Assembly: GCA_963747935.1 (NCBI GenBank)
Contig: CAVVGY010000005.1
Span: 197,620-261,619, forward strand
DNA: 64,000 nucleotides
Reading direction: 5' to 3'
Source: an uncultured Thermoleophilia bacterium
GTDB lineage: Bacteria; Actinomycetota; Thermoleophilia; UBA2241
The notes beneath the pieces are model-generated. The model was not told the DNA's origin. It saw only the letters and a list, made by a program, of their open reading frames with translations, and searched no databases. This document shows positions 39,021 to 60,157 of this stretch, piece by piece. Each line of letters opens with the position of its first letter. Position 1 is the stretch's first letter. The translations under genes and the position numbers were made by a program.

Positions 39021-39034
39021 CCACCCGGGTGGAT
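39021..39034. promoter_or_regulatory. Operator palindrome CCACC-CG-GGTGGAT, site 1 (tetR promoter)
   Basis: Lies 14 nt downstream of a TTGGCG-N17-TAGTCT promoter (38979-39007) and 16 nt upstream of GTG 39050. Confidence 0.65.
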
Positions 39035-39049
39035 AGGAAGAGGGCGACC

Positions 39050-39736
39050 GTGACCACATCCAAGAAGAGTGCGCGGGGCAAGCTGCAGTTCCCGTTCGAG
39101 GATCCCGTCGAGACCCTGCCCGCTACGGCGCAGAAGATCCTCAAGGCCGCGACCACGCTGCTGGCGGAGAGGGGCTACGAGGCCGTCACGCTCGAGAACG
39201 TCGCCACCGAGGCGGGCGTGAACAAGGCCTCCATCCGCTACAACTTCGGCAACAAGGCGGGCCTCATCATGGCCGTCGCCGACGCGCTCATCCACAACGA
39301 GTGCCTGCGCCTGGCCGCCGACACGGAGAGCGTGCCGGAGGAGGAGCGGCTGCACGCGGCCATGGTCGGCATCCGCCGCATGATCGTGGACGCCGACTCG
39401 TTCCGCGGGTTCTTCGACATCCTGCCGCACGCGTTCCGCGACCCCGAGCTGCGCGAGCGCATGTTCGCGCTGTACGAGTGGTGGTACCACCAGAACCTCA
39501 CGTGGCTCGGCCTCGCCGGGCCGGGCGCGGAGAGCAACGAGATGCTCATGGGACTGGCCGAGCTCATCGCGGCCATCCCCGACGGCCTCTCGGTGCAGGC
39601 CGGCCTCAACCCGGACGGCTTCGAGCTCAGCCGGCCGCTCGCCACGCTCGAGTTCCTGCTGCGCAACTCGATGGTCCAGCTGCTGGAGATGGCCGCGAGC
39701 GCAGGCGATGCAGAGGCGGCCGCGGCGACGTCCTGA
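39050..39736 (+). CDS. TetR/AcrR family transcriptional regulator
   Basis: GTG 39050 after AGGAAGAGGG. HTH VTLENVATEAGVNKASIRYNFGNKAGL. The ORF-track start at 39029 lies inside the operator. Confidence 0.85.
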   Translation: MTTSKKSARGKLQFPFEDPVETLPATAQKILKAATTLLAERGYEAVTLENVATEAGVNKASIRYNFGNKAGLIMAVADALIHNECLRLAADTESVPEEERLHAAMVGIRRMIVDADSFRGFFDILPHAFRDPELRERMFALYEWWYHQNLTWLGLAGPGAESNEMLMGLAELIAAIPDGLSVQAGLNPDGFELSRPLATLEFLLRNSMVQLLEMAASAGDAEAAAATS

Positions 39737-39798
39737 CGCTTCCGCGGCCCTGGCCGGCACGCCTCACGGTCGGCGAAGTGTTGGTCGGCAGGTCGCGT

Positions 39799-39814
39799 AT
39801 CCACCTAGGTGGAT
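39799..39814. promoter_or_regulatory. Operator palindrome ATCCACC-TA-GGTGGAT, site 2
   Basis: Perfect 16-bp palindrome. Its centre is 108 bp from the centre of site 3. Confidence 0.65.
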
Positions 39815-39877
39815 TGACTCACGGTATCCGCCCTCGTGCTCGGCGTCAAGAGCTGGCCTCGTCGACGACCCATACGC

Positions 39878-39905
39878 TTGACAACCCCCCATTTGCACCT
39901 ATTCT
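39878..39905 (+). promoter_or_regulatory. Candidate promoter TTGACA-N16-TATTCT of the mtbB operon
   Basis: Hexamers at 39878-39883 and 39900-39905. Operator site 3 starts 3 nt after the -10. Confidence 0.55.
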
Positions 39906-39907
39906 TT

Positions 39908-39921
39908 TCCACCCAGGTGGG
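39908..39921. promoter_or_regulatory. Operator palindrome TCCACC-CA-GGTGGG, site 3
   Basis: Immediately downstream of the -10 element of the mtbB promoter. Confidence 0.65.
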
Positions 39922-39964
39922 TAGTTCTTCCCACACCAAGCGCTACCGTGGAGGGGGTGAGCGG

Positions 39965-41386
39965 GTGGCTTCGATCGTCACGCGCATGGGTGACGGCAGC
40001 ACCGTCCAGATGACCCGCGACGAGATCCGCAGGGAGATCGTCGAGGGGTCTGAGGCCGCGGCGGTGAAGGCCAAGGTCCCCGTACTCGAGGAGAACGAGG
40101 TCGACTACCTCGTCGACATGTTCTGTTGCCCCAGCCGCGTGTGGGGCGTGGAGCGCGGCCACGAGGCCGTCATGACCAAGGACGGCGGCACCAACACGCT
40201 CATCTCGTCGCGGCTCTCGAGCGGCATCGCCGCGCCGATCGGCCGCGAGACGGCCGTCAGGCTGTTCGAGCGGGCGTTCGCGTTCGACTCCATGGAAGTC
40301 GGCCACATCGACTACTCCGTGAAGCCGAGCAAGTTCATCGTCAGCGTGGAGCAGGAGCACATGGAACTGCTCCAGCACACCACCGTGTTTCCGCTCTTCT
40401 ACGGGTTCATGCCGAACCTGGGCCTCTACTACCGGCCCGACGGGCAGTTCGAGAACCCGTCCGACCTCTTGCCGCTGGGCAAGATCGCCGAGGCGCGGCG
40501 CACGCAGGAGGAGGCCCTGGAGGCCTGCCACGACGACGTCGTCTGGCAGAGCAAGATGTTCGCCGAGACCGGCGCCGACGGCATCAACTACGACACCGTG
40601 GCGTCCACCGGCGACGCCGAGTTCCTCGCCACTCTCCGCGCCACCGAGACCATCTCGTCCGAGACCCACATGCCGGTCGAGGTGAGCATGGCGGCCGAGA
40701 TGGTGCTGGGGTTCCACGGCGAGCTCGAGTACAAGGGCACCCGGCTCGCCGGGCTGTGGCCGCACCAGCAGATGAAGGTGGTCGAGCAGGCCGGCGCCGC
40801 GATCTTCGGCCCCGTGGTCAACAACAACAGCAAGAAGTCGTGCGCCTGGAACGTCGCCCGGGCGGTCACGTTCGTCAAGGCCTGCACCAAGGACGCGACC
40901 ATCCCCATCCACCCCAACGTGGGCAACGGTGTGGGCGGCGTGCCGATGTTCGAGGTCTCGCCGATGGACATGGTCAGCCGGGCGAGCGCCGCGATGATCG
41001 AGATCGGCAAGGCCGACGGGTTGTAGGTGGGTACCGGCGACCCGAACGGCATGGGTATGGCGCACGCGCTGGCCTCGTCGATGGGTGGCATCAAGACCGC
41101 GGGAGATCTCGTGGCCAGGATGCAGCTCAGCAGGAAGATGAGGCTTCCGGAGGCCAAGCAGTACGTGGCCGACAAGCTCGGCGTGAGCGTCTTCGACCTG
41201 TCCGACTCGACCGTGATGCGCACCGTGCGCGAGGAGTTCGACATCGGCGTCGTCACCGCCGTCCCCGGGCTCGCCAAGGGCCTCGAGGCCAAGTCGCGTA
41301 TCGCCGACCTGCTCGACATCCGCATCAACTCCGTCGAGCGCCTCAAGGCCAAGACGGGACTGGGCGCGCCGGCCGGAGCCGTCTGA
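39965..41386 (+). CDS. mtbB: Dimethylamine:corrinoid methyltransferase MtbB with in-frame UAG (putative pyrrolysine) at 41024-41026
   Basis: GTG 39965 after GGAGGGGG. VASIVTRMGDGSTVQMTRDEI...MEVGHIDYSVKP...FPLFYGFMPNLGLYYRPDGQFENP...LAGLWPHQQ...ARAVTFVK...IEIGKADGL-TAG-VGTGDPNGMGMAHALA...AGDLVARMQLSRKM. Collinear over its full length with Methanosarcina MtbB as I remember it (..VAGVDGI-Pyl-IGVGDPLGM..). The ORF track splits it into 39836-41026 and 41027-41386 in the same frame. Confidence 0.9.
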
Positions 41387-41396
41387 AGGAGAATCG

Positions 41397-42023
41397 ATGA
41401 AAGACCAGCTCAAGCAAGCCATCATCGACGGCAACGAGGGCGTCGCCCTGGCGATGACCCAGGCGCTGCTCGCCACCGGGGCCTCGGCCCGTGAGATCTT
41501 AGACGAGGGCCTGCTCCCGGGCATGGAGGTCGTGGGCACGCGCATGCGCGAGGGCGAGTGCTTCATCCCCGAGGTGCTGCTCTCCGCCCGGGTCATGCAG
41601 GCCTGCCTCGACCTGCTGCGCCCGCACATGGCGGCCGGCGAGGAGGCCGGCATGGGCACGGTCGTGATCGGCACCGTCGAGGGCGACCTGCACGACATCG
41701 GCAAGAACCTCGTCGGCATGCTCCTCCAGGGCGCCGGCTTCACGGTCGTGAACCTCGGCACCGGGGTGACGGCCGCCGACTTCGTCGCCGCGGTCAGGGA
41801 GCACTCACCCGCCATCATCGGCATGAGCGCCCTGCTCACGACCACGCTGCCGCACATGAGCGAGACGATCGCGCAGCTCAAGGCCGAGGGCCTCCGGGAC
41901 GCGGTCAAGGTGATGGTCGGCGGCGCCCCCGTGACGGCCGCCTACGCCGAGGAGATCGGCGCCGACGGCTACGGCGCCAACGCCGGCATGGCCGTGGAGC
42001 GGGCGAAGGAGCTGGTGGGGTAG
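41397..42023 (+). CDS. Methylamine-type corrinoid (B12-binding) protein, MtbC/MttC-like
   Basis: N-terminal helical cap plus Rossmann B12 domain with the DxHxxG motif (GDLHDIGKN) and GMSALLTTT. Stop is TAG 42021-42023. Confidence 0.85.
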   Translation: MKDQLKQAIIDGNEGVALAMTQALLATGASAREILDEGLLPGMEVVGTRMREGECFIPEVLLSARVMQACLDLLRPHMAAGEEAGMGTVVIGTVEGDLHDIGKNLVGMLLQGAGFTVVNLGTGVTAADFVAAVREHSPAIIGMSALLTTTLPHMSETIAQLKAEGLRDAVKVMVGGAPVTAAYAEEIGADGYGANAGMAVERAKELVG

Positions 42024-42122
42024 GCTGGAGGCCGTGGAGGCCGCCCGCGCCGCGTGCGGACGGCGAGAGACCAGAGCCTCCGCCAGGGGGCGGCGGATCC
42101 TGATGGGGAACGGGGTGGACTG

Positions 42123-43553
42123 ATGACCGTGCGGGTCGAGTGGCTCACGGCAGACGAGCGCGAGGCGATCTACACCCAGGCGCTCGACATCCTCGAGCGC
42201 GTCGGCATGCGCATGAAGGGCGCCGCGGTGCTCGACCTGCTGCGCGAGGCCGGCGCGGAGGTGGACGACTCCGGGACGGCGCGCCTGCCGGCAGGGCTCG
42301 TCGAGCGCGCCGTCGCCGCGTGCCCGCGCGACCTGCTCATGGCCGGCGAGACGCCGGACGACGACGTGCTGCTCGACGGCTCCCGGACGTTCTTCAACGT
42401 CAGCGGCTGCGCGGCCAAGACCCTGGACCAGCAGACCGGCGCCGTCCGGCCCTCCACGCTGGACGACCTGCGCGACGGCACCATCGTGCTGGACGCCACG
42501 CCCGAGCTCGACGTCGTCTGGACGTTCCTCACCGCCACCGACGTGCCGCTCGAGCGGCGGGAGCTCGTCGAGTACTACACGTACCTCACGGAGACCACCA
42601 AGCCGCTGGTGTTCGTCGACTGCCCCGAGAAGACCGACCACGTGCGCCACATCATCGAGATCGTGTCCGGGGACCTCGAGAAGTTCCGGCAGCGGCCGCG
42701 CATGTCGCTGCTGTGCGCGGCCCGCTCGCCGCTCGAGGTCAACGGCCAGCTGCTCGACGTGGCCTGCGAGTTCGCGTCGCTCGGCGCTCCCATCTGGGTC
42801 TACTCCATGCCCATCTCCGGGGCCACGGCTCCCGTCACCCCGGCCGGTACCCTGGCGCTGCTCTGGGCCGAAGTACTGGGCACCCTGACCGCCATCCAGA
42901 CGGCGGCGCCCGGGGCCCCCATCCTCGCCTGTTGCGGGCCCGGGATCCTCGACATGCGCGCCACCACCATGTCGCTCGGCAACCTCGAGAGCACGCTCAT
43001 GGGCGCGGCGGCGGTCGAGATCGGCCACCACCTCGGGATCCCGGTGCACAACTCCGGCCTCTCCACCGACGCCAAGCACCTCGGCGTGCAGGCCGGCTAC
43101 GAGAAGGGCCTCAAGGTGATGGCGGCGGTCGCCACCGGCGCCGACATCTGCAGCGGCGGCTTCGGGTTCCTCGACTCCTCGAGCACGTTCAGCCTGCGCA
43201 TGATCCCCGTGGACGCCGAGATCGCCGCCATGGCGACGCGCATGGCGCGGGGCATCGAGGTGACGCCCGACACCCTTCTTGCGGACTCCATCGGGCGTGT
43301 GGGTATCGGCGGGGACTTCCTGCGCGAGAAGGAGACACGCCGCCGCATCCGCGCCGGCGAGCACTTCGTACCGCGCATCGGCTCGCGGCTGCCGTTCGAA
43401 CAGTGGCTCGCCGAGGGCCGCACCGAGACGGACGCCGCCGACGACGCGGTGCGAGCCGCGCTGGCCGCGCGCGAAGAGCGCGGCCCGCGGCTGTCGGAGG
43501 ACCAGCGGCGCGCGCTCGCCGCGGTCTGCGACGTGACCACGACCACTACGTGA
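42123..43553 (+). CDS. MttB-superfamily methyltransferase without pyrrolysine (quaternary-amine type)
   Basis: ATG 42123 (MTVRVEWLTADEREAIY..). At the Pyl-equivalent column it reads SG-L-STDAKHLGVQAGYEKGL, with Leu in place of Pyl. Confidence 0.85.
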   Translation: MTVRVEWLTADEREAIYTQALDILERVGMRMKGAAVLDLLREAGAEVDDSGTARLPAGLVERAVAACPRDLLMAGETPDDDVLLDGSRTFFNVSGCAAKTLDQQTGAVRPSTLDDLRDGTIVLDATPELDVVWTFLTATDVPLERRELVEYYTYLTETTKPLVFVDCPEKTDHVRHIIEIVSGDLEKFRQRPRMSLLCAARSPLEVNGQLLDVACEFASLGAPIWVYSMPISGATAPVTPAGTLALLWAEVLGTLTAIQTAAPGAPILACCGPGILDMRATTMSLGNLESTLMGAAAVEIGHHLGIPVHNSGLSTDAKHLGVQAGYEKGLKVMAAVATGADICSGGFGFLDSSSTFSLRMIPVDAEIAAMATRMARGIEVTPDTLLADSIGRVGIGGDFLREKETRRRIRAGEHFVPRIGSRLPFEQWLAEGRTETDAADDAVRAALAAREERGPRLSEDQRRALAAVCDVTTTTT

Positions 43554-43597
43554 CGTGACCATTCCGAGCAATCAGAGATGAGAAGGGAGGTGCGCCC

Positions 43598-45064
43598 ATG
43601 AAGCGGAACCACCAGGCCGGCCGCACGCGCCGGGAGGGCTGCGAGTTCCGGGTCCTGACCGACGACGACCTCGCCGACATCCACCTCGGGACCCTGGAGG
43701 TCCTGGAGCGGACGGGCGTGTACGTCGAGGACGAGGAGGCCCGCGAGGTCTTCGCCGGGGCCGGCGCCACGGTCGACGCCAAAGGCGTCGTCCGCATCCC
43801 CGGCCACGTCGTCGAGCAGGCCGTGCGCACGGCGCCCAGCAAGCTCCGGCTCGCCGGCCGCAACCCCAGGAACGACATCGTGCTCGAGGCCGGGCGCGTC
43901 GGCTTCACCAACTTCGGTGAGGGCGTCGCGATCATCGACCCGTACACCGGCGAGCTCAAGGTACCGACCAAGCAGGACGTCGCCGACACCGCCAAGGTCG
44001 TCGACGCGCTGCCCAACGTGGACGTCTACGAGCGCGCCGTGGTGGCCGAGGACGTCGACCAGCGCGTCGTCCACCTGCACCAGTACGAGGCCTGGGCGAC
44101 CAACACGTCCAAGCACGGATTCATGGGCTCCGGCAACGGCTGGCTCTCCCGCAAGCTGGTCGAGATGGCGTCCGTCATCGCCGGCGGGCGCGAGAAGCTC
44201 AAGGAGCGCCCGATCATCAGCTTCATCACCTGCCCCGTGAGCCCGCTCAAGCTGGTGCAGGACACGTGCGAGATCATCATGACCGGCGCCCGCGAGCACA
44301 TCGCCGTGAACATCCTCTCGATGGCGATGGCCGGCGGCTCGTCGCCGGTGACGCTGGCGGGCACGCTGGTCACGCACAACGCCGAGGTGCTCGCCGGCAT
44401 CACGCTGAGCCAGCTCACCCAGCCGGGCGCCAAGGTCGTGTACGGCAGCTCCACGACGGCCATGGACCTGCGGCTCGCCTCCGCGAGCGTCGGCTCGCCC
44501 GAGTGCGGCCTCATCAACGCCGCCGTCGCCCAGATCGCCCGCTTCTACCTGCTGCCCAGCTGGGTAGCGGGTGCGTAGGGCGACGCCAAGACGGTCGATG
44601 CCCAAAGCGGCCACGAGAAGACCCTGACCGGCCTGATGCCGGCGTTGGCAGGCGCCAACCTGATCTACGGTCTGGGGATGATCGAGTCGGGCATGACCTT
44701 CGACTTCGGCCAGCTCGTCATGGACGACGAGTTCGCCGGCATGATCAAGCAGTGCGTCCGCGGCATCCGCGTGGACGACGAGGCGCTCGCCATCGACGTG
44801 ATCGACGACATCGGTCCGTTCGGCGACTTCCTCAGCCACGACCACACCATGGCGCACATGCGCGAGCAGTCGCAGCCTGCGGTGATCGACCGTCGCGTCC
44901 GGGAGGACTGGACGACCAACGGCTCGCTCACCATCCAGGACCGCGCCCTCGCCAAGGCGCGCAAGATCCTCGAGACCCACCAGCCGGACCCGCTGCCGGA
45001 CGGCGTGGCCGACGAGCTCAAGGAGATCATCCGCGCGGCCGAGCGCGAGCTCGGCGTCGGGTGA
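43598..45064 (+). CDS. mttB: Trimethylamine:corrinoid methyltransferase MttB with in-frame UAG (putative pyrrolysine) at 44576-44578
   Basis: ..NILSMAMAGGSSPVTLAGTLVTHNAEVLAGITLSQLTQPGAKVVYGSSTT...[45 protein letters not shown]. Methanosarcina MttB (from memory) reads ..YVAGS-Pyl-SDAKVPDDQAGHEKT. The ORF track splits it into 43598-44578 and 44636-45064 in the same frame. Confidence 0.9.
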
Positions 45065-45108
45065 ACGCCCGCCGCCCGTAACGGCTCGAGGGCGAGCACC
45101 AGCAGCCC

Positions 45109-45150
45109 GCGGACGCCCGCGGCCGGCAGACGCCGGCCGCGGGCGTCCGC
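45109..45150 (+). terminator. Perfect 19-bp stem-loop after mttB
   Basis: GCGGACGCCCGCGGCCGGC-AGAC-GCCGGCCGCGGGCGTCCGC. No U-tract. Confidence 0.6.
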
Positions 45151-45335: not shown

Positions 45336-45606
45336 GGGAACAGAGCGCCCCGCCACTGTCTCCCGCCACTGCCCCACGCCGCGGAGCCGGCCGCAGGCTG
45401 CGAGGTTCCAGTGCAGTCTCGCTTTTTGGATTCCTTACCGATTCTCACTTCATCAGGCACTAAGTGCTCCAGTTGGCGGTAATCTCGTCACGAACCGACG
45501 AAAAGTGCCACTATCGGTTCAGAATCCATCGCTGAGCGGTTGTCAGCCGTCAGTCTCGGTGCTACTCTCGGAACGACCAAATCACGAGCAATCGAGGAGC
45601 CGCTCC

Positions 45607-46341
45607 ATGAACAACAAGATCGTCCCGCTCTGGTCCGTACCGCGGTCTATCTCCACCGGCTTCGAGCGCATGATGTTCGAGCGCGGCGACTTCAAGGTCA
45701 TCCACGAGCCCTACGGCTACTTCTTCTACCTCGAGGCCGCGCACAAGGAGCCCGTGGGCATGCAGCCGCAGGAGGGTCATCCGCAGACCTTCGAGGGCAC
45801 GACCGAGATGATCGAGGCCGCCGCGACCGCCGACAAGCCGGTCTTCTTCAAAGACATGGCGTACTACGTCAGCGACGTGGCGGACGAGGACTTCATGAAG
45901 AAGTTCACCAACACGTTCATCATCCGCGACCCCGCCCTCACGCTCGTCTCGTACCACAAGCTCGACCCCACGGTGACCCTGCGCGAGATCGGCTTCGAGT
46001 CGCAGTTCAAGCTGTTCGAGCTCGCCAAGAAGATCACCGGCGAGGTGCCGGCGGTCGTCGACGCCGAGGACCTGCTCATCGACGCCGGGTCGGTGGTCAA
46101 GCAGTACTGCGAGAAGGTCGGCATCCCGTTCCTGCCCGAGTCCCTCACCTGGAAGCCCGAGTTCAAGCAGGAGTGGAAGGACTGGGAGATGTGGCACCTG
46201 GACGCCGGCGACAGCACCGGCTTCCAGAAGGACATGGAGGACTTCGGCTACACGGTCGACGACGTGCCCGAGCTCAGGGAGATGTACGACAAGTGCCAGC
46301 CTCTGTACGAGAAGATGTACGCGGAGCGGCTCAAGCCGTAA
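45607..46341 (+). CDS. Sulfotransferase-family protein
   Basis: ATG 45607 after GAGGAG. N-terminal WSVPRSISTGF resembles the PAPS 5'-phosphosulfate-binding loop. Sits directly upstream of sat and a SulP permease. Family assignment is tentative. Confidence 0.6.
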   Translation: MNNKIVPLWSVPRSISTGFERMMFERGDFKVIHEPYGYFFYLEAAHKEPVGMQPQEGHPQTFEGTTEMIEAAATADKPVFFKDMAYYVSDVADEDFMKKFTNTFIIRDPALTLVSYHKLDPTVTLREIGFESQFKLFELAKKITGEVPAVVDAEDLLIDAGSVVKQYCEKVGIPFLPESLTWKPEFKQEWKDWEMWHLDAGDSTGFQKDMEDFGYTVDDVPELREMYDKCQPLYEKMYAERLKP

Positions 46342-46444
46342 CGAGCCTCGTTCGTATCCCCGGGAGGGCCTCCGAGCTGGGGGCCCTCCCGCTGGGATCC
46401 TCCACCTCCGCGACCGCGTCCGTGACCCTGCCGGGAGTCCTGCC

Positions 46445-47662
46445 GTGAACCAGCGTCCCGAGAACTGCGAGCTCATCTCGCCCTTCGGCGGCGGGCCTCT
46501 GGTCGACCTGGTGGTCCACGACCCCGACGAGCGCGCCGCGCTGCTCGAGCGGGCCCAGAACCTGCCTGTGGTGCCGCTCTCGTTGCGCGCCCAGTACGAC
46601 CTCGAGATGCTCGCGGTGGGCGCGTTCTCGCCGCTGGACAGGTTCATGCCGCACGACGAGTACGAGTCGGTCCTCTACGAGATGCGCCTCGAGGGCGGCG
46701 AGCTGTTCCCCATCCCGCTCGCCGTGCCCTGCCGCGAGGAGGTCCTCCGCGGGCACCCGCGCGAGATCGCGCTGTCGGACGAGGAGGGCGTCATCCTGGC
46801 CCTGCTCGAGGTGGACGAGGTCTACCCGGCCGACATCCTGCGCGAGATGCGCGCGGTGCTGGGCGGCCGGGACAGCGCGCACCCGCTCGTCATCGAGGCC
46901 AAGGGCTGGCCGAGTCACTATCTCGCCGGACGCCCGCGCGTGCTCGACCTGCCGCGCCACCGGCTGCACGGACCCATGTGCCTCACGCCGGCGGAGTTGC
47001 GCGCGCGCCTCGCCACCATGGGCAACTCGACCGTGGTGGCGTTCCAGACGCGCAACCCCATGCACCGCATCCATGAGGAGCTCACCAAGCGCGCGCTCAG
47101 GACGGTCGGCGGCACGCTCCTCATCCATCCGGCCGTGGGCGTCACGCGGCCCCAGGACGTCGGCGCGGCGCTCCGTGTGGAGGCCTACGAGGTCCTCGTG
47201 CACAACTACTACGACTCGTCGAACACGCTGCTCTCCCTCATGCCTCTGGCCATGCGCTTCGCCGGGCCGCGGGAGGCCGTGTGGCACGCGATCATCCGGC
47301 GCAACTACGGCGCCACCCACATCATCGTGGGGCGGGACCACGCCGGGCCTGGTCCCGACTCGCACGGGGTGCCGTTCTACGGGCCCTACGACGCGCAGGC
47401 CATGGCCGAGCACTACTCGCACGAGATCGGGGTGAAGACCATTTTGGCGCGGGAGCTCGCCTACCTCACCGACGAAGACCGCTACGTGGAGCTCAACGAG
47501 GTCCCGTACGGCGCGCGCGTCTCTTCCATCTCGGGCACGCAGGTGCGCGAGGAGTACCTGGCCAAGGGCAAGAAGCTGCCCGAGTGGTTCACCCGTCCCG
47601 AAGTCGCGGAGGTCCTGCAGCGGGCGTACGCGCAGGCCGGCGATGCGGCGCCCGGCGCCTGA
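46445..47662 (+). CDS. sat: Sulfate adenylyltransferase (ATP sulfurylase, Sat type), no APS-kinase domain
   Basis: FQTRNPMHRIHEELTKRA...GRDHAGPG... Confidence 0.9.
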   Translation: MNQRPENCELISPFGGGPLVDLVVHDPDERAALLERAQNLPVVPLSLRAQYDLEMLAVGAFSPLDRFMPHDEYESVLYEMRLEGGELFPIPLAVPCREEVLRGHPREIALSDEEGVILALLEVDEVYPADILREMRAVLGGRDSAHPLVIEAKGWPSHYLAGRPRVLDLPRHRLHGPMCLTPAELRARLATMGNSTVVAFQTRNPMHRIHEELTKRALRTVGGTLLIHPAVGVTRPQDVGAALRVEAYEVLVHNYYDSSNTLLSLMPLAMRFAGPREAVWHAIIRRNYGATHIIVGRDHAGPGPDSHGVPFYGPYDAQAMAEHYSHEIGVKTILARELAYLTDEDRYVELNEVPYGARVSSISGTQVREEYLAKGKKLPEWFTRPEVAEVLQRAYAQAGDAAPGA

Positions 47663-49354: not shown

Positions 49355-49424
49355 CCGGCGCGGCCGCCGGGACCGGCACTCGGGTCGGCGCCTGCGTGAT
49401 CGGCCGACCCGCGCTACCGACGTG

Positions 49425-49649
49425 TCAGTCGCCGCCCTGGAGCCCGCGTTCCGGGTGCTCGCCGCACCAGTCGTCCGGCTCGGTGAGCGGGAAATCGCGC
49501 GGGGGGCTCGGCGGGTACCGGCGGCACTCACCCTTGTCGTTGGCGGTGCGGATCTCCACCTGCTCGGACGCTGCCTCCGACCAGCGGTACTCGATCCGGT
49601 CGGGCAGCCGCGACCACATGGGGCAGGTCGCACACCTGGGTTCGTCCAT
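49425..49649 (-). CDS. Hypothetical small Cys-containing protein (74 aa)
   Basis: ATG 49649 after AGGGG (MDEPRCATCPMWSRLPDRIEYRW..). Weak evidence. Confidence 0.35.
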   Translation of the reverse strand: MDEPRCATCPMWSRLPDRIEYRWSEAASEQVEIRTANDKGECRRYPPSPPRDFPLTEPDDWCGEHPERGLQGGD

Positions 49650-49729
49650 GGAGCACCCCTTCTCGCTGAGCGGTTCGGCAGGAGCGTACCCTCCGCGCCC
49701 CCCAGAGCGCCATCCGGATCCCGGAGCGC

Positions 49730-50575: not shown

Positions 50576-50588
50576 GGACCGGGCGGGG

Positions 50589-51177
50589 TCAGGAGGAGAG
50601 TTCGTCTCCGTCGAGGGTCACTCCGTCCCCGCTCGGAGCCGGCCCGAGGCCGACGTCCTCGCCCTCCCAGTTGTAGAAGAACTTCTCGGTGCGCAGCACG
50701 TTCCACGTCTGGGTGCCGGCGATGCCGTCGATCTTCTCGAGGTCCTCGTTGAGGAACTTGAACAGGCCCTCCATGTGCGGCAGGTAGGCCTGGATGATGA
50801 TGTCGAAGTTGCCGGCCACGTAGGCGACGTAGGCCACGTTCTCCATCTCCGCGAGCCTGCGCCCGACCTCGCGGACCTTGCCGCGCTGCACGTTGATGCC
50901 GACCATGGCGTCGATGGGGAAGCCGATGGGCGCCGGGTTGATGCGCGCCGCGTTGATGATGGCCCCGGCGTGCACCAGCCGGTCGATGCGCTTGCGCACG
51001 GTGGGCTCGGAGAGTCCGACCGGTGCGGGCGATGTGGGCGTAGCTCAGGCGCGCGTCGTGGCGCAGCAGCTTCATGATCTGACGGTCCACGTCGTCAAGC
51101 TCTATGGTACCGTGGGGCAGGGAGCCCTGACGGACGATTGGTTGGCTTTCGCTTTGGCTATCGCTTTCGCCGTTCAT
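50589..51177 (-). pseudogene. Lrp/AsnC family transcriptional regulator, frameshifted at about 51021
   Basis: HTH half (LDDVDRQIMKLLRHDARLSYAHIART) and the continuation (VGLSEPTVRKRIDRLVHAGAI.. plus RAM/AsnC_trans_reg domain) are in adjacent frames. Start is ATG 51177 or GTG 51237. Confidence 0.8.
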
Positions 51178-51310: not shown

Positions 51311-51340
51311 TTGACAGACGGGTGACTCGATGACCATAGT
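51311..51340 (+). promoter_or_regulatory. Candidate promoter TTGACA-N18-CATAGT of the ABC importer operon
   Basis: -35 at 51311-51316, -10 at 51335-51340. Confidence 0.45.
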
Positions 51341-51352
51341 GTCGTTCGTGTA

Positions 51353-51367
51353 CCCACCCGGGTGGAT
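51353..51367. promoter_or_regulatory. Operator palindrome CCCACC-CG-GGTGGAT, site 4
   Basis: 13 nt downstream of the -10. An extra CCACCC half-site lies about 20 nt further on. Confidence 0.6.
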
Positions 51368-51536
51368 GGTCACTGGGCCACCCATCCGGAGAGCGTCACA
51401 GGGGTGTGCAGAGCCGGGGGGCTCGCTGCGGGCGGTGTGACCTACCATCGTTCCGCATTCCCTGCCTCCTGGGCGCGTGTGAGAGCAAGTGTGAGACTGG
51501 ACCTTCAGGTAACGACCAAGACAGGGGGACGGGAAC

Positions 51537-53181
51537 GTGACTGACAAGGATCAGCGCAGTCCATCAGGGTTCGAGGAGATCGGCGAGCTCGTCAACGGCA
51601 AGCGCATCTCGCGCCGCAGCCTGATCAAGGGCGCCGCCGCGATGGGCGCGGTCGCGGCTCTGGGACCGATCGCCGCGGCGTGCGGCAGCAGCAGCAGCGA
51701 CACCGGCTCGTCGGCCAGCCCGGCGGCGGGCGCCAGCGCCACCAAGGGCGGCGACCTCATGGTCGGCATCGTCGGCGGCTCGGCCAAGGACACGGCCGAC
51801 CCGCACACCGGCTCGTACGAGCCCGACATCGCCATCCAGTACATCATGTACGAGGGCCTCACCGCGTGGGACTTCGACATGAACCTCACCAACCTCCTGG
51901 CCGAGACCATCGAGCCCAACGCCGAGGGTACCGTCTGGCAGGTCAAGCTGCGCGACGGCGTGACGTGGCACGACGGCAAGCCCCTCACCGCCGACGACGT
52001 GGTGTACTCGCTGGACCGCATCGTCGACCCGAAGGACCCGAAGGTCGGCGCCGCCGCTCTCACCGGCGTCACCAAGGGCGGCAACAAGAAGGTCGACGAC
52101 GAAGACCGTGGAGATCACGCTCTCGACGGCCAACGTGCTGCTGGACGAGAACCTGGCGGAACGCAGCTGCAAGATCGTGCCCGTGGGCTTCGACCCGAAG
52201 GCCCCGATCGGCAGCGGCCCGTTCAAGATGCTCGAGATGAAGCCCGGTGAGTCGTTCAAGTGGGCCAACTTCACCGAGTACTGGAACACGCCCGCGTATG
52301 TCGACACGCTCACCATGATCGAGTACGCCGACGACACGGCGCGCATCAACGCTCTGCAGAGCGGCCAGATCCAGGCCATGTCGCAGCTTCCGAAGAGCCA
52401 GGCCAAGGTCATCGAGGCCACGGACGGCCTGGCGCTCCTCAACGCCGAGACCGGTGCGTGGCGTCCGTTCACCATGCGCATCGACGCCAAGCCGTACAGC
52501 GACGTGCGCGTGCGGCAGGCGTTCCGGCTCATCGTCGACCGCCAGCAGATGATCGACCAGGCGTACAGCGGCCTGGGCGCCGTGGCCAACGACATGTACG
52601 CCCGGTACGACGCCGGTACGCCGCAGCTCGAACAGCGCGTGCAGGACATCGAGCAGGCCAAGTCCCTGCTCAAGCAGGCCGGCTACGACAACAACCTCAC
52701 CGTCGAGCTCGTCACCTCCGAGGGCGCGCTGGGCGGCGACGAGGTCGCAGCGGCGCAGGTGTTCGCCGAGCAGGCCAAGGCCGCCGGCGTCACGGTGAAG
52801 ATCAAGAAGACCGACGCCAGCGTCTTCTACGGCGACGACTACCTCTCCTGGCCGTTCGCGCAGGACTTCTGGGCCACGCGTGGCTTCCTCGCGCAGGCCA
52901 GCCAGGGCACCATGCCGGACGCGCCGTACAACGAGACGCATTGGCAGAACCCCGAGTGGCTGTCCCTGGTGCAGAAGGCGTTCAAGACCGTCGACGACGG
53001 CCAGCGCAACGACCTGATCAGCCAGGCCCAGCAGATCGAGCAGGAGACCGGCGGCTACATCGTGTGGGCGTGGCGTAACCAGGTCGACGCCTATTCCAAG
53101 ACGACCACCGGCTACAAGCTGGACAAGCTCGGCGGTCCCATCGGCCGCATGTACTTCAAGGACGTGTACTTCACGGCCTGA
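51537..53181 (+). pseudogene. ABC transporter substrate-binding lipoprotein, family 5 (Opp/Dpp/Nik type), frameshifted at 52101
   Basis: Tat-like RRSLIKGAAAMGAVAAL plus lipobox AAAC. ..GNKKVDD | KTVEITLSTANVLLDEN.. continues in the next frame. Confidence 0.85.
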
Positions 53182-53196
53182 TCGCGAGTAGACATC

Positions 53197-53235
53197 GACC
53201 GCGGGCGCGGGGTGATCCTCCCCGCGCCCGCGGTC
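53197..53235 (+). terminator. 16-bp perfect intra-operon hairpin after the binding-protein gene
   Basis: GACCGCGGGCGCGGGG-TGATCCT-CCCCGCGCCCGCGGTC. Typical of an mRNA stabiliser or partial terminator between an SBP gene and its permease genes. Confidence 0.5.
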
Positions 53236-53373
53236 CACTCCGGTGACGAGCACTGCCGCGGTGCTCGCTCGATCGTGACGTCATCCGCGGCGGCCTGTGA
53301 CCCCGCTTCCCTGTAGTTCCCCCCGAGAGGCAGTCATCATGATCAGTAGAACCGAAAGAGGGAGAGGCCGTTC

Positions 53374-54339
53374 ATGCCCCCGCTTCTGAAGCTGATCCTC
53401 ATCCGGATCGGCCTGGGGGTGCTCACGCTGTTCCTGGTGTCCATCGTCGTCTTCGTCGCGACACAGGCTCTCCCTGGCGACACCGCCAAGGCGATCCTCG
53501 GCAGGGAGGCGGTCAACAAGGAGCGGTACGAGGCGCTCAAGGAGCAACTCGGGCTCAACAAGCCGGTCGCCTCGCAGTACCTCGACTGGCTCGGCGGTGT
53601 GGTCACCGGCGACTTCGGCGACTCGCTCGTGCAGGGCTCGCCGGTCACCAGCCTCATCGGCCATCGCGTCCTCAACTCCTTCATCCTGGTGTTCGTCGCG
53701 GCTCTCGTGAGCGTGCCCGTCTCGCTCCTCCTGGGCTCCCTCACCGCGTTACGAAGAGACAGCAAGTTCGACGCGAGCGTCACCGTCGGCAGCTTGGCGA
53801 TGGCGGCGCTGCCGGAGTTCGTGATCGGCATCATCCTCATCCTGCTGTTCGCCACCCAGGTGTTCAAGATCCTGCCGGCGACGTCCCGGGTGGACTCGAG
53901 CGTGCCGATCGTGGAGCAGCTCGACCTGTTCATCCTGCCTGCGCTCACACTCACGCTGGCGGTAGCGCCGTACATCACCCGTATCCTGCGCGCCAGCACC
54001 ATCGAGGTGCTGGAGAGCGAGTACGTGATGATGGCGCGCCTCAAGGGCTTGCCCGAGCGGCTGGTGCTCAACCGGCACGCGCTCCCCAACGCGCTGGCCC
54101 CGGCGCTCCAGGTCACGGCGCTCAACCTGGCCTGGCTGGCCGGCGGCGTCGTCGTGGTCGAGTACCTGTTCGCCTTCCCCGGCATCGGCTCGCTGCTCGT
54201 CGACTCCGTCGCCAACCGCGACATGCCCATGGTGCAGGCGATCACCCTGATCATCGCCGCGGTGTACGTGGTCGCCAACCTGACGGCCGACATCCTCACG
54301 ATCCTCGTCAGCCCACGACTCAGGACGGGCCTGCGATGA
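53374..54339 (+). CDS. ABC transporter permease (DppB/OppB type)
   Basis: 321 aa, six TM helices, EAA-like loop (YVMMARLKGLPE). Confidence 0.9.
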   Translation: MPPLLKLILIRIGLGVLTLFLVSIVVFVATQALPGDTAKAILGREAVNKERYEALKEQLGLNKPVASQYLDWLGGVVTGDFGDSLVQGSPVTSLIGHRVLNSFILVFVAALVSVPVSLLLGSLTALRRDSKFDASVTVGSLAMAALPEFVIGIILILLFATQVFKILPATSRVDSSVPIVEQLDLFILPALTLTLAVAPYITRILRASTIEVLESEYVMMARLKGLPERLVLNRHALPNALAPALQVTALNLAWLAGGVVVVEYLFAFPGIGSLLVDSVANRDMPMVQAITLIIAAVYVVANLTADILTILVSPRLRTGLR

Positions 54340-55259
54340 GCACCCCAGAGATGAGAGTCAACGACTCAGAACTCGTCGAGCCGCCCGTCGTGCACGCCGA
54401 CCGCCGGCCCTCCGAGTGGATCATGATGCTGCGCGAGGCGTGGAGCATGCGCCGCACCAAGATCGGCGTCGCCATCTTCGGCGTCATCGTCCTCATCGCC
54501 GTCGTCGGGCCCTGGGTGGCGCCGTACTCGCCCACCGAGTTCGTCGCCCCGCCGTTCTCGCCGCCGGCCATCCCCAAGATGTGGCTGGGTAGCGACTACA
54601 TCGGGCACGACGTGCTCACGCGCGTGCTCTACGGCGGCCGCACAGTCATCCTGCTCGCCCTCGCGGCCACCGTCATCGGCCTCGTCCTGGGCGTGACCCT
54701 GGGACTCATCACCGGCTACGCGCGGCGCTGGATCGACGAGTCCATCATGCGCATCCTGGACGTCGTCCTCGCCTTCCCGCAGATCGTGCTCGCGCTGCTC
54801 TTCGTCTCCATCCTCGGGCCAAGGCTGTGGCTCATCGTGGTCATCGTCGGCATCTCGCACGCACCGCGCATCGCGCGTGTCGCGCGTGCCGCCACGCTCG
54901 AGGTCTCACAGCGCGACTTCGTTCGCGCGGCCGAGGCCTTCGGCATCGCCCGGTGGAAGATCCTCTTCAACGAGATCCTGCCGAGCATCACCAGCCCGCT
55001 GCTGGTCGAGTTCGGTCTTCGGCTGACCTACTCCATCGGCGTCATCGCCGCCTTGTCGTTCCTCGGGTTCGGCATGCAGCCGCCGGCGGCCGACTGGGGC
55101 CTCATGATCAACGAGAACCGCATCGGCATCATCATCCAGCCGTGGCCGGTGCTCGTGCCCGTGCTGCTCATCGGTATCCTGACCATCGGGACCAACCTGA
55201 TCGCGGACGGCCTCGGCCGCGCCTTGATCGGGATCGAACGCGACACGGGGGTGGGGTGA
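54336..55259 (+). CDS. ABC transporter permease (DppC/OppC type)
   Basis: 307 aa. Overlaps its neighbours by 4 and 1 nt. Confidence 0.9.
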   Translation: MSTPEMRVNDSELVEPPVVHADRRPSEWIMMLREAWSMRRTKIGVAIFGVIVLIAVVGPWVAPYSPTEFVAPPFSPPAIPKMWLGSDYIGHDVLTRVLYGGRTVILLALAATVIGLVLGVTLGLITGYARRWIDESIMRILDVVLAFPQIVLALLFVSILGPRLWLIVVIVGISHAPRIARVARAATLEVSQRDFVRAAEAFGIARWKILFNEILPSITSPLLVEFGLRLTYSIGVIAALSFLGFGMQPPAADWGLMINENRIGIIIQPWPVLVPVLLIGILTIGTNLIADGLGRALIGIERDTGVG

Positions 55260-57082
55260 TGGCGACGACGATCACTGACGGGACCGCTGCGACGCCGGAG
55301 CTCGTGACCGTCCTCGAGGTCGAGGGCCTGCGCATCGTCCTCGATCCTTCGGGAGTGGACATCGACGACGATGTCTCGATGGTCATCCATCGCGGCGAGG
55401 TGCTCGGGTTGGTAGGCGAGTCCGCCTCCGGCAAGACGACCGTCGGCACCAGCCTGCTCGACTACCAGCGTCGCGGCGCCAAGATCGCCGGCGGACGCGT
55501 CGAGATCGACGGACAGGACATCCTGGCGATGGACCCCGCCGCCCTGCGCGGCATCCGCGGCGGGGCCATCAGCTACGTCCCCCAGGACTCCTCGGCGGCG
55601 CTCAACCCGGCGCTGCGCATCGGCACCCAACTCATGGAGATCCTCGAGGTGCACGGCTTCGGCTCCTCGCAGGCTGACCGCGAGGCCCGCCTGACCCAGA
55701 TGATGGAAGAGGTGCTGCTGCCGTCCGACAAGGCGTTCCTGAAGCGCTACCCGCATCAGCTCTCCGGTGGCCAGCAGCAGCGCGTCGCCATCGCCATGGC
55801 GTTCGCCAACCGGCCTAAGGTCATCGTCCTCGACGAGCCGACCACCGCCTTGGACGTCACGACGCAGGCGCACGTGCTGGACACGGTCCGCGACCTCACC
55901 AAGTCCTACGGGGTCGCGGCGCTCTACATCACCCACGACCTCGCCGTCGTCTCCAACCTCGCCGACCGCATCGCTGTCATGTACGCCGGGAGGGTCGTCG
56001 AGGTCGGCACGCGCGACGAGCTGTTCGACCAAGGGCATCACCCGTACACGCGCAAGCTGCTCGCCTCCATCCCCGACATCACCGGGGAGCGCGCGCTGCG
56101 CGGCATCTCCGGCTGGGCGCCGCGCCCGGGCCAGCGACCGAGCGGCTGCGCCTTCACGCCGCGCTGCGACTGGGCGGTCGACAAGTGCAGCGAGGCGTTC
56201 CCGCCGGTCGAGGATGTGAGCCCCGGCCACCACGTGCGCTGCTGGCGCTACAAGGAGGTCGGCGCGCAGGCGGCCGGGCTCGACATCCTGCTGCGCGACA
56301 AGTCGCTCTCGGCTCCTCAGGCACAGGAGAAGCAGGTCATCAGCGTGCGCGACGTGACGGCCTACTACCAGCACAAGGAGATACTTCACGGCATCAACGC
56401 GAGCCTCAGCGAGCGCCGCTGCCTGGCGCTCGTCGGGGAGTCGGGGTCCGGCAAGACGACCCTGGCGCGCTGCATCGCCGGCCTGCATCGGCACAAGATC
56501 GTCGGCGACATCGACTTCATGGGCAAGCCGCTCGCGCGCGACGCGCGTGGCCGGCCGCGCTCGACCCGCCAGTCGATCCAGTACATCTTCCAGAGCCCCT
56601 ACAGCTCGCTCAACCCACGCAAGACGATCGCCCAGATCATCTCGCAGCCGCTGAAGGTCTTCTTCGACCTCTCGCGCGACGAGATGGAGGACCGGATGGT
56701 GAAGGCGCTCGAGCAGGTGGCGCTCGACTCGTCCCTGCTGAGCCGCTACCCGGACCAGCTGTCCGGCGGCGAGCGTCAGCGTCTGGCCATCGCGCGCAGC
56801 CTCGCCGCCGAGCCGACGGTGCTGATCTGCGACGAGGTGACCTCGTGGCTGGACGTCTCGGTACAGGCGGCGATCATCGAACTGCTGGCGGCCCTGCAGC
56901 GCGACATGGATCTCTCGATGCTGTTCGTCACCCACAACCTGGCCCTGGTGCGCAGCATCTCCCAGGAGGTGGCGGTGATGAACGACGGCCGCATCGTGGA
57001 GTACGGGCTCGTCGACGCGGTGCTCGAAGACCCGCAGGCCGACTACACGAAGAAACTGCTGTCGGACACGCCGACGGTGTAG
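55259..57082 (+). CDS. Fused double ATP-binding subunit of the Opp/Dpp-type ABC transporter
   Basis: Two Walker A motifs (GESASGKTT, GESGSGKTT) and two signature motifs (LSGGQQQRV, LSGGERQRL). Stop is TAG 57080-57082. Confidence 0.9.
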   Translation: MATTITDGTAATPELVTVLEVEGLRIVLDPSGVDIDDDVSMVIHRGEVLGLVGESASGKTTVGTSLLDYQRRGAKIAGGRVEIDGQDILAMDPAALRGIRGGAISYVPQDSSAALNPALRIGTQLMEILEVHGFGSSQADREARLTQMMEEVLLPSDKAFLKRYPHQLSGGQQQRVAIAMAFANRPKVIVLDEPTTALDVTTQAHVLDTVRDLTKSYGVAALYITHDLAVVSNLADRIAVMYAGRVVEVGTRDELFDQGHHPYTRKLLASIPDITGERALRGISGWAPRPGQRPSGCAFTPRCDWAVDKCSEAFPPVEDVSPGHHVRCWRYKEVGAQAAGLDILLRDKSLSAPQAQEKQVISVRDVTAYYQHKEILHGINASLSERRCLALVGESGSGKTTLARCIAGLHRHKIVGDIDFMGKPLARDARGRPRSTRQSIQYIFQSPYSSLNPRKTIAQIISQPLKVFFDLSRDEMEDRMVKALEQVALDSSLLSRYPDQLSGGERQRLAIARSLAAEPTVLICDEVTSWLDVSVQAAIIELLAALQRDMDLSMLFVTHNLALVRSISQEVAVMNDGRIVEYGLVDAVLEDPQADYTKKLLSDTPTV

Positions 57083-57182
57083 AGGGCTCCGGCGGCGGGC
57101 GGACGCAGCTCCGCCCGCCGCCGGACGCCTTGCCCCGCCAGACCCATCGAATCGACCTGAGCAACAAGATCGGAGGAGGCCG

Positions 57183-58634
57183 ATGCGTGCCCACATGACC
57201 TGGCTGGACGAGGCCGAGAAGCGGTCGTTCGTCGACGAGGCGCTGGGGATCCTCGAGCGCGTGGGCGTCGAGCTCAAGGGGTCGGCGGCGCTGCCCGTCC
57301 TCGCCGACCTCGGGGCGGACGTCGACTTCTCCACCGGGGTCGTCCGCCTGCCGGCCGAGCTTGTACGGGACACCGTCGAGGCCTGCCCGCGCCGGGTGCT
57401 CTTCGCCGGCGCGTCGCCCGAGTACGACGTGGTACTGGACGACGGGGAGCCGGCACACTTCTGCTCCTCCGGCTGCGCCGCGTTCGTGCTCGACCACGAG
57501 ACCGGCGTCCGGCGTCCCTCCACGCTCACCGACCTTCAGTCGGCCACGATCCTGCTGGACGAGGTGCCCGAGGTCGACGTCATGTGGACCACCATCACGG
57601 CCGGCGACGTGCCCGTGGAGGTCCGCGAGCTGGTCGTCTGCTACGTGGTGCTCACCGAGGCGCGCAAGCACGTGACCCTGGTCGACAGCCCGTCGCAGGC
57701 CGAGCCGCTGCTGCGCATCATGGACATCGTCTCCGGCGACGCGGAGGCCTTCCGCGCGCGGCCGCGGTTCAGCACGCTGCTCACCGCGGCGTCCCCGCTG
57801 CGCATCGACGGCCCGCTGCTCGACTTCCACGCGGTCACGGCCGGTCGCGGGGCGCCGGTGGAGGTCTACACGGTACCCATGGCCGGCGCCACCTCGCCGG
57901 TGACGCTCGCGGGCACCATCGTCCAGGGGCTCGCGGAGTTCCTCGGCGTCGCCACCGCGCTGCGCGCGCTCGCCCCGGAGGCGCGCGTCGTCATGGGCGT
58001 GTCCGGCTCGACCATGGACATGCGCTCCGCCGGCGTCTCGTACGCTTCGCCGGAGTGCACGCTGATGAACGTCGCCTGCGTGGAGCTCGCGCACCACCTC
58101 GGCGTGCCGGCGGCGGTGCCCGGCCTCGCCACCGACGCCAAGTACGCCGGCCTGCAGGCGGGCTACGAGAAGGCGCTCAAGGGTCTCGCGACGGCCGGCG
58201 TGGGCGCCGACGTGCTCAGCGGCGGCGTCGGCATGATCGACTCGGTGAACACGCTGTTCCTGCCGCAGATCGTGCTGGACGCGGAGGTGGTGGGCATGAT
58301 CCGCCGCATCCTGGGCGACGTGGACACGAGCCCCGAGGCGATGCTGGCGGACATGATCGCGCGGGTCGGCATCGGCGGCGACTTCCTCAAAGAGAAGGAG
58401 ACCGCCAGGCGGCTGCGCGCGGGCGAGCACTTCTCGCCGGCGATCTCGTCGCGCCAGGCCTACGACCAGTGGGTCGCGGACGGGCGCGACGAGGTGGCCC
58501 GCGCCCGGGAGCGCATGGATGCGCTCTTCGCGGCGCGGGCGGAGCGGGGCCGCCCGCTCGGCGACGAGCAGCGGGCGGAGCTCGCGCGCGTCTGCGGCGT
58601 CACGCCGGAGATGGCGCGCGCCCTCGGCGACTGA
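57183..58634 (+). CDS. MttB-superfamily methyltransferase without pyrrolysine, second paralog
   Basis: 483 aa. Pyl-equivalent column reads PG-L-ATDAKYAGLQAGYEKAL. Confidence 0.85.
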   Translation: MRAHMTWLDEAEKRSFVDEALGILERVGVELKGSAALPVLADLGADVDFSTGVVRLPAELVRDTVEACPRRVLFAGASPEYDVVLDDGEPAHFCSSGCAAFVLDHETGVRRPSTLTDLQSATILLDEVPEVDVMWTTITAGDVPVEVRELVVCYVVLTEARKHVTLVDSPSQAEPLLRIMDIVSGDAEAFRARPRFSTLLTAASPLRIDGPLLDFHAVTAGRGAPVEVYTVPMAGATSPVTLAGTIVQGLAEFLGVATALRALAPEARVVMGVSGSTMDMRSAGVSYASPECTLMNVACVELAHHLGVPAAVPGLATDAKYAGLQAGYEKALKGLATAGVGADVLSGGVGMIDSVNTLFLPQIVLDAEVVGMIRRILGDVDTSPEAMLADMIARVGIGGDFLKEKETARRLRAGEHFSPAISSRQAYDQWVADGRDEVARARERMDALFAARAERGRPLGDEQRAELARVCGVTPEMARALGD

Positions 58635-58702
58635 CCACGAGGCGCCGCCGGCGCCGCTGCGGCGGTCCGGGCGGCGGCGCCCCGGCATGAACGCGAGCGC
58701 TG

Positions 58703-58731
58703 TTGACACCCGGGCGGGCAGCACTTAAGTT
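58703..58731 (+). promoter_or_regulatory. Candidate promoter TTGACA-N17-TAAGTT of the aminotransferase operon
   Basis: Hexamers at 58703-58708 and 58726-58731. The operator starts at the next base. Confidence 0.55.
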
Positions 58732-58745
58732 TCCACCTGGGTGGA
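58732..58745. promoter_or_regulatory. Operator palindrome TCCACC-TG-GGTGGA, site 5
   Basis: Abuts the -10 element, the same layout as site 3. Confidence 0.65.
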
Positions 58746-60155: not shown

Positions 60156-60157
60156 AC

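Follow-up and report, generated by a model that had tools for sequence, protein, structure and literature searches.

The DNA analysed here, referred to as the window, is a stretch of 64,000 nucleotides (G+C content 70 %) from an uncultured Thermoleophilia bacterium (GenBank assembly GCA_963747935.1, contig CAVVGY010000005.1, positions 197,620 to 261,619). It includes a gene for a TetR-family regulator, an operon containing the pyrrolysine (Pyl)-type methylamine methyltransferase genes mtbB and mttB, an operon for an Opp-type ABC importer and an MttB paralogue, and an operon that begins with an omega-aminotransferase gene. A short palindrome recurs in front of these units. The initial annotation had proposed that five copies of this palindrome join the four units into one regulon of the TetR-family protein, and the sites, the regulator and their occurrence in related sequences are described below.

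The gene map was built from Pfam, NCBIfam and Rfam matches. The genes for GAPDH, PGK and the LarA-family protein were annotated via intact orthologues in a related locus, L033, and mapped back (loci and contigs are cited by L numbers). The gene names in the initial annotation (TetR, mtbB, Opp plus MttB paralogue, and aminotransferase-gap-pgk-larA) are correct by Pfam and NCBIfam. The palindromic sites are listed without a strand.

38979..39007, + strand: promoter of the TetR gene (-35 TTGGCG at 38979-38984, 17-nt spacer, -10 TAGTCT at 39002-39007; read from the sequence)
39018..39035: site 1, putative autoregulatory operator, atgCCACCCGGGTGGata (exact match and orthologous sites)
39050..39736, + strand: TetR-family regulator, 228 aa (Pfam TetR_N and BetI-type TetR_C_6)
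39798..39815: site 2, putative accessory operator, tatCCACCTAGGTGGatt (exact match)
39878..39905, + strand: promoter of the mtbB methyltransferase operon (TTGACA at 39878-39883, 16-nt spacer, TATTCT; 10 of 12 consensus matches)
39906..39923: site 3, putative operator spanning the mtbB operon transcription start, tttCCACCCAGGTGGgta (exact match and conserved layout)
39965..45064, + strand: methyltransferase operon (Pfam, NCBIfam, Rfam)
39965-41386, + strand: mtbB, with an in-frame TAG at 41024-41026 (Rfam PYLIS_2)
41397-42023, + strand: corrinoid protein (Pfam/NCBIfam)
42054-43553, + strand: non-Pyl MttB paralogue, full-length (Pfam/NCBIfam)
43598-45064, + strand: mttB, with an in-frame TAG at 44576-44578 (Rfam PYLIS_3)
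51311..51340, + strand: promoter of the importer operon (TTGACA at 51311-51316, 18-nt spacer, CATAGT)
51351..51368: site 4, putative operator, tacCCACCCGGGTGGatg (exact match and orthologous sites)
51537..58634, + strand: importer operon (Pfam, NCBIfam)
51537-53181, + strand: SBP_bac_5 binding protein, with an apparent frameshift near 52100-52250
53374-54339 and 54336-55259, + strand: two permeases (Pfam/NCBIfam)
~55260-57082, + strand: fused OppD/F ATPase (Pfam/NCBIfam)
57183-58634, + strand: second non-Pyl MttB paralogue (Pfam/NCBIfam)
58703..58731, + strand: promoter of the aminotransferase operon (TTGACA at 58703-58708, 17-nt spacer, TAAGTT at 58726-58731)
58730..58747: site 5, putative operator, tttCCACCTGGGTGGata (exact match and conserved layout)
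58767..63771, + strand: aminotransferase operon (Pfam; intact L033 orthologues via NCBIfam/Pfam)
58767-60155, + strand: class III omega-aminotransferase (Pfam)
~60160-61198, + strand: archaeal-type (type II) GAPDH (Pfam, L033 orthologue)
61227-62480, + strand: PGK paralogue, with three apparent frame changes (61300-62200; L033 orthologue at 3476-4747)
~62500-63771, + strand: LarA-family 2-hydroxyacid racemase, with one frame change (~62860)

The palindrome in the window

The core CCACCNNGGTGG matches the window exactly six times (core starts at 28350, 39021, 39801, 39909, 51354 and 58733), against 0.11 matches expected from sequence shuffles, and none of 100 shuffles reached six. Five of the matches have a pyrimidine-purine centre (CCACC-YR-GGTGG), for which 0.05 are expected. 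The YR-centred set is exactly the five sites of the initial annotation, whose coordinates were right to within 1 base, and on the Pfam gene map all five lie between genes, as had been claimed. Their flanks read GCCACC..GGTGGAT, TCCACC..GGTGGAT, TCCACC..GGTGGGT, CCCACC..GGTGGAT and TCCACC..GGTGGAT.

The sixth match, TCCACCGAGGTGGA (28349-28362), had not been listed previously. It has a non-YR centre and lies in frame close to the 3' terminus of a gene for a PfkB-family kinase, where the reading frame TCC ACC GAG GTG GAG encodes S-T-E-V-E in preferred codons. The orthologous position in L006 has a mismatch, and the match is not conserved in relatives. For these reasons TCCACCGAGGTGGA was rejected as an operator, and it is probably a coding-sequence coincidence.

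Four of the five YR-centred sites are associated with a promoter. The core of site 1 lies 13 nt past the -10 element of the TetR gene promoter, and its 14-mer ends 17 nt before the GTG start codon. The core of site 3 begins 3 nt after the -10 element TATTCT, the 14-mer of site 4 begins 12 nt downstream of the -10 element CATAGT, and the 14-mer of site 5 immediately follows the -10 element TAAGTT, which was read by eye from the sequence because the stricter -10 rule of the promoter scan missed it. Sites 3, 4 and 5 are therefore the three sites that the initial annotation had placed on, or shortly past, the -10 element of a promoter with a perfect TTGACA box. Between site 4 and the start codon of the importer operon there is a leader of ~170 nt (51367-51536), with leaders of 110-230 nt in orthologous loci; no Rfam family was found in the leader of the window at the gathering threshold.

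Loci selected by the regulator

One genome per species was picked solely by the presence of a TetR orthologue (46-95 % identity to the window protein), which gave 47 loci and 752 kb, almost all from metagenome-assembled genomes (MAGs) of Thermoleophilia. Relatives were covered as 20-kb slices and the genome of origin by the 64-kb window, and the window proteins were mapped onto the 47 loci to place the palindromes relative to genes. The exact YR-centred palindrome is present in 44 of the 47 loci (at least one copy; 84 copies overall), and two additional exact core matches have non-YR centres.

In the window and the loci together (816 kb) there are 89 exact YR sites, where shuffles predict fewer than one. 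The symmetrised profile of these sites extends the motif to 18 bp, TAY-CCACC-YR-GGTGG-RTA, and there is no conservation outside it. Crude open reading frame (ORF) calling places 73 of the 89 between genes, and almost all of the remaining 16 'coding' sites are artefacts of over-extended or antisense ORFs in DNA of 70 % GC. Of the one-mismatch variants with non-YR centres, 85 are coding and 19 intergenic, in line with the background. The three exact non-YR matches (at 28350 in the window and in L004 and L030) are each inside a real gene, a background of ~3 per 640 kb of coding DNA.

The common gene order is hypothetical protein - threonine aldolase - TetR - mtbB, with one copy directly in front of TetR and another in the gap that separates it from mtbB or mttB. 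A palindrome is found just upstream of TetR in 25 of the 47 loci, and the cTTGGCg-N17-gTAnnCT layout upstream of site 1 is kept in ~25 orthologous loci. The mtbB or mttB gene is preceded by the palindrome in nearly all 47, and the spacing between the mtbB-operon promoter and the palindrome is kept in orthologous loci. Orthologues of site 4 precede substrate-binding protein (SBP) genes in L025-L028, L030, L042, L043 and L141. Rearranged loci have the order palindrome - SBP - OppBCDF - MttB paralogue - TetR - palindrome - mtbB (L026, L027, L030 and L043) or palindrome - aminotransferase - GAPDH - PGK - LarA - TetR - palindrome - mtbB (L033 and L046, and partly L034 and L047). An aminotransferase gene that directly follows the corrinoid gene (L026-L028 and L043) has no separate site. 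The motif is thus found before orthologous genes despite diverged flanks and shuffled gene order, and it is by this behaviour that a regulon is recognized in genome comparisons.

Further copies were found before a gene for a URO-D-family, MtaA/MtbA-like methyltransferase (L014 at 16759, L016 at 11749, L045 at 12805, and L042 at 7577 and 7647), which we take to be the second methyltransferase of the pathway. This gene is divergent from one for an IlvD/Edd-family dehydratase that has LarA-like and FAH-family neighbours.

The promoter context of the 89 sites takes several forms. In 42, at mtbB, mttB, aminotransferase and URO-D promoters, it is TTGACA-N15-18-TAnnnT-N1-5-palindrome. In the eight sites of the SBP type the palindrome is 6-18 nt further downstream of the -10 element, and the 22 of the TetR type have a TTGGCN-type -35 element, TAnnnT and a gap of ~10 nt. 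A further eight have the palindrome in the spacer, TTGTGT-tat-palindrome-ga-TAGCAT (L025-L028, L030, L040 and L043). These are positions at which a bound protein blocks RNA polymerase.

Contigs selected by promoter and palindrome

A second set of sequences was selected by DNA pattern alone, by scanning metagenomes for TTGACA-N15-18-TANNNT-N2-5-CCACCYRGGTGG. This yielded 100 stretches with 104 matches, and 89 contigs, mostly a few kb long, had a G+C content of at least 64 %. Regulon gene families were found on 83 of the 89 high-GC contigs and a TetR orthologue on 47 of them. The gene downstream of the match was mtbB in 33 cases, the aminotransferase gene in 25, Pyl-type mttB in six, TetR in five, URO-D in two, and an MttB paralogue and a corrinoid protein gene in one each; 14 matches ran into the contig end and 17 were followed by nothing recognized, ~9 of the latter, on low-GC contigs, probably being chance matches. 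The order of the window, SBP - Opp - MttB - palindrome - aminotransferase, is repeated in L141, L123 and L128, and the layout of the aminotransferase promoter in L030, L033, L034, L046 and L047 and in 25 metagenome contigs. Overall, the layout is common to ~130 related sequences, and the earlier claim that four units share one TetR-linked palindrome is supported by both comparisons across genomes.

Three matches were found in other settings. In L112 (2242) and L121 (6553), promoter and palindrome precede an ABC transporter of the SBP_bac_3 amino-acid type, accompanied by a distant class III aminotransferase, and in L132 (5137) they abut a tRNA-Glu gene. These could be further members of the regulon or chance matches.

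Site 2

From centre to centre, sites 2 and 3 are separated by 108 bp, as noted in the initial annotation. The looping that had been suggested from this distance was dropped as unsupported, because the spacing varies and the upstream site is lacking in the closest relatives (L001, L002 and L004-L006). A second upstream site is present in a subset of the sequences (L007, L008, L019, L064, L072, L088, L100, L103, L106 and L120) and degenerate in L003 and L020, and the double-site spacings of 107, 108, 119, 122, 131 and 145 bp show no conserved helical phase. Site 2 is probably an accessory operator, which might block read-through transcription coming from the TetR gene.

The regulator

The 228-aa protein has an N-terminal helix-turn-helix, matched by TetR_N at residues 30-75 (E = 2.5e-14, 53.2 bits versus a cut-off of 24), and a C-terminal ligand and dimer domain, matched by TetR_C_6 (33.4 bits versus a cut-off of 27). 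Its size is within the range of ~190-250 aa of the TetR family, and the operator expected of that family is found computationally as the 18-bp palindrome on the promoters of four units, including that of its own gene. An AlphaFold (AF2) model is all-helical, with a predicted local distance difference test score (pLDDT) of 84-96 in the DNA-binding region and a mean of 62.8. Searching the Protein Data Bank (PDB) with the regulator sequence found no close solved relative; the best matches (E = 7e-9) were uncharacterised regulators and gave no clue to the ligand.

There are 389 homologues of the regulator in public data, the best 120 of them at 74-97 % identity. Among 92 orthologues, with overall identities down to ~46 %, there is almost no change in the recognition helix (A55-F66, AGVNKASIRYNF), and this matches the invariant core of the operator and so supports the link between the TetR-family protein and the sites. 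In L044, which carries two one-mismatch sites with a CTACC half-site in promoter context instead of an exact site, the recognition helix is unchanged. No informative co-variation of helix and operator was found, both being essentially invariant.

The regulator resembles Tn10 TetR in its TetR_N helix-turn-helix, its helical C-terminal domain, its size (~200-230 aa) and the presence of a palindrome on promoters including its own, and release by a ligand is presumed. However, its operator is unrelated in sequence to tetO, it is predicted to control operons for the catabolism and transport of methylated amines where TetR controls an efflux pump, and it reaches 22.9 bits with the NCBIfam TetR model, for which the cut-off is 265. 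BetI, a TetR-family protein of Proteobacteria that represses the bet genes and responds to choline, is likewise tied to quaternary-amine metabolism, has the same C-terminal domain family (TetR_C_6) and was the second-best NCBIfam match, essentially tied with PsrA. The protein does not score as a BetI orthologue (TIGR03384, 47.5 versus 201.3 bits; PRK00767/NF001978, 37.6 versus 118 bits), betA, betB and betT were not found in the window or loci, and its targets would be corrinoid-dependent methyltransferases. RutR, the Escherichia coli TetR-family regulator of pyrimidine catabolism, has a 7-N2-7 palindromic operator, TTGACCAnnTGGTCAA, with an architecture similar to that seen here. It too controls a nitrogen-compound catabolic operon, but the half-site sequence and the regulon differ and the NCBIfam match is weak (24 bits versus cut-offs of 230-368).

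A known regulator of such genes is archaeal. MreA of Methanosarcina acetivorans is a TrmB-family factor controlling methylamine methyltransferase genes (PMC3419521). Like MreA, the TetR-family protein is predicted to act on Pyl-dependent methyltransferase genes of the mtbB/mttB type, but the two are not homologous. The literature searched contained no description of a TetR regulator of MttB/MtbB genes, nor of any bacterial regulator of them.

Proposed regulation and alternatives

We consider it very probable that the palindrome is the operator of a single repressor, the TetR-family protein, and that it joins units for methylamine use into one regulon. The protein would bind the 18-bp palindrome as a dimer, and the bound site would overlap the start of transcription or the first part of the transcript at sigma-70-type promoters, or in some relatives the spacer between their -35 and -10 elements. 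By this means it would repress its own gene and the mtbB(Pyl) - corrinoid protein - MttB paralogue - mttB(Pyl) operon, the Opp-type ABC importer with the second non-Pyl MttB paralogue, and the omega-aminotransferase - type II GAPDH - PGK paralogue - LarA-family racemase operon. In related genomes the MtaA/MtbA-like (URO-D family) methyltransferase would likewise be under the operator. We infer that a small-molecule inducer releases the repressor; the BetI-type ligand domain and the nature of the target genes make a methylated or quaternary amine the most likely candidate.

Several points weigh against this interpretation. The connection between protein and sites was drawn from their co-localisation and from the usual autoregulation of TetR-family genes. 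Some orthologous units have no exact site, e.g. the mttB gene that follows TetR in L014 and L016, and units in L032, L041 and L044. Site 2, 63 nt past the TetR stop codon, is without a recognisable promoter or an explained role. The part of the AlphaFold model containing the ligand domain is of low confidence (pLDDT 62.8), so that the binding pocket is unreadable. Finally, intergenic enrichment was computed on 816 kb of local sequence.

The palindrome might instead be a real operator for another factor, either the AsnC/Lrp-type regulator encoded at ~50589-51044 or an unlinked one, with the TetR gene as a target. An AsnC-type gene adjoins the SBP promoter region in the window, L025, L028 and L094, but it is missing from most loci with the palindrome, whereas TetR is adjacent in 44 of the 47 loci and present on 47 of the 89 short contigs. 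The recognition helix of TetR is as invariant as the palindrome core, and a perfect 6-N2-6 palindrome that extends over 18 bp is what a TetR dimer typically binds, unlike the AT-rich sites of Lrp/AsnC proteins. We therefore regard this alternative as very unlikely.

Activation or dual regulation by the bound TetR-family protein, or co-operation of sites 2 and 3 by looping, is more improbable still. Some TetR-family proteins are activators, e.g. FasR, which is among the weak NCBIfam matches of the regulator, and paired sites are found in some relatives as well as, 108 bp apart, in the window. However, sites on the transcription start, in the spacer or just past the -10 element are in positions for a repressor and not for an activator, and the paired sites differ in spacing, with no helical phase, and lack the upstream member in the five loci named above.

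The reading of the palindrome as something other than a binding site (a repeat due to chance or composition, a small mobile repeat, an RNA hairpin or a terminator) is effectively refuted: high-GC coding DNA does give rise to chance copies of the core, one at 28350 and two in the loci, but those copies inside genes are all non-YR centred, no shuffle reaches the observed count, and sequence conservation ends with the 18 bp while the spacing from the -35 and -10 elements is fixed. Site 3 was flagged as terminator-like by the promoter scan, but a 5-bp stem with a 2-nt loop is too small for a stable hairpin, and in the commonest layout transcription begins within the palindrome, so that the RNA holds part of it; the terminator or hairpin reading of site 3 was rejected both for the size of stem and loop and because the site lies where transcription starts.

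Genes of the proposed regulon and a possible pathway

The in-frame stop codon at the Pyl position is TAG in all 75 mtbB orthologues and in 46 of 47 mttB orthologues (loci L001-L147), and Pyl decoding appears to be conserved in this Thermoleophilia lineage. Searches of the window and of all fetched loci found no tRNA-Pyl and no pyl genes. In a PDB search, the two MttB paralogues of the window were equally far from the MtgB and MttB structures, giving no clue to their substrate.

The PGK paralogue is archaeal-like and has HQGGD in place of the canonical H(Q/L)G(K/R)P, a replacement that is invariant in ~20 orthologues. The canonical motif helps to bind the phosphate of 3-phosphoglycerate, and its basic residue is replaced here. 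The best NCBIfam match of the LarA homologue is malate racemase, at 469 bits just below the cut-off of 500. Together, the HQGGD motif, the type II GAPDH and LarA suggest a non-glycolytic module that would convert an aldehyde via an acyl phosphate to an acid with formation of ATP. The frame changes in the SBP, PGK and LarA genes are likely to be assembly indels, because many long-read MAG loci have breaks of a similar kind at other positions, though these genes may be pseudogenes.

The regulon may mark an undescribed route from a quaternary amine to a primary amine and then to ATP from the carbon skeleton; we put this forward tentatively, as the complete scheme is rather unlikely to be right. 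The Pyl-type MtbB and MttB, together with the non-Pyl MttB paralogues, would first remove methyl groups in corrinoid-dependent reactions, and omega-transamination would then turn the primary amine into an aldehyde. The archaeal-type GAPDH would oxidise the aldehyde to an acyl phosphate, the PGK paralogue (H-Q-G-G-D) would carry out substrate-level phosphorylation, and the LarA homologue would racemise the resulting 2-hydroxyacid. The sequence L-carnitine, 4-amino-3-hydroxybutyrate, (R)-malate semialdehyde, D-malate, L-malate would be stereochemically consistent with this scheme.

Other genes around the regulon

The remaining genes near the regulated units are as follows.

37906-38946: beta-eliminating lyase/threonine-aldolase-like protein (Pfam)
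45505-49743: sulfotransferase, ATP sulfurylase and SulP permease, after the methyltransferase operon
49730-50575, - strand: EamA
~50589-51044, - strand: AsnC-type regulator, divergent from the importer operon

The sulfotransferase/ATP sulfurylase/SulP order recurs in L002, L004, L006, L007, L013, L015 and L023, with no operator before it, and conceivably these genes are linked to a sulfated amine, e.g. choline-O-sulfate. A flavoprotein gene upstream of the TetR locus (35649-37028) has Pyr_redox_3 and weak FMO-like matches and likewise no operator before it; bacterial trimethylamine monooxygenases are members of the FMO family. An M-box (magnesium) riboswitch (27124-27293, - strand, 144.5 bits) lies upstream of a minus-strand gene at ~25788-27146.

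Significance

Within the literature searched, these are the first candidate regulator and operator for bacterial Pyl-dependent methylamine methyltransferase genes. The host lineage, Thermoleophilia, is abundant and uncultured in soil and sediment, and transcripts of Pyl-type mttB and mtbB from Actinobacteriota have been detected in peat (PMC10805028). The switch is best read, on present sequence comparisons, as a conventional autoregulated TetR repressor and operator that would control uptake, demethylation and a downstream carbon-skeleton module. With an 18-bp site and a 228-aa protein that can be synthesised, this hypothesis is testable without culturing the organism. The operator also serves as a guilt-by-association tool, placing the importer, the non-Pyl MttB paralogues, the MtaA-like methyltransferase and the aminotransferase/GAPDH/PGK/LarA genes in one putative response. 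It ties the odd GAPDH/PGK/LarA operon to methylamine use, and the genes linked to it are candidates for revealing both the substrate and the fate of the demethylated product.

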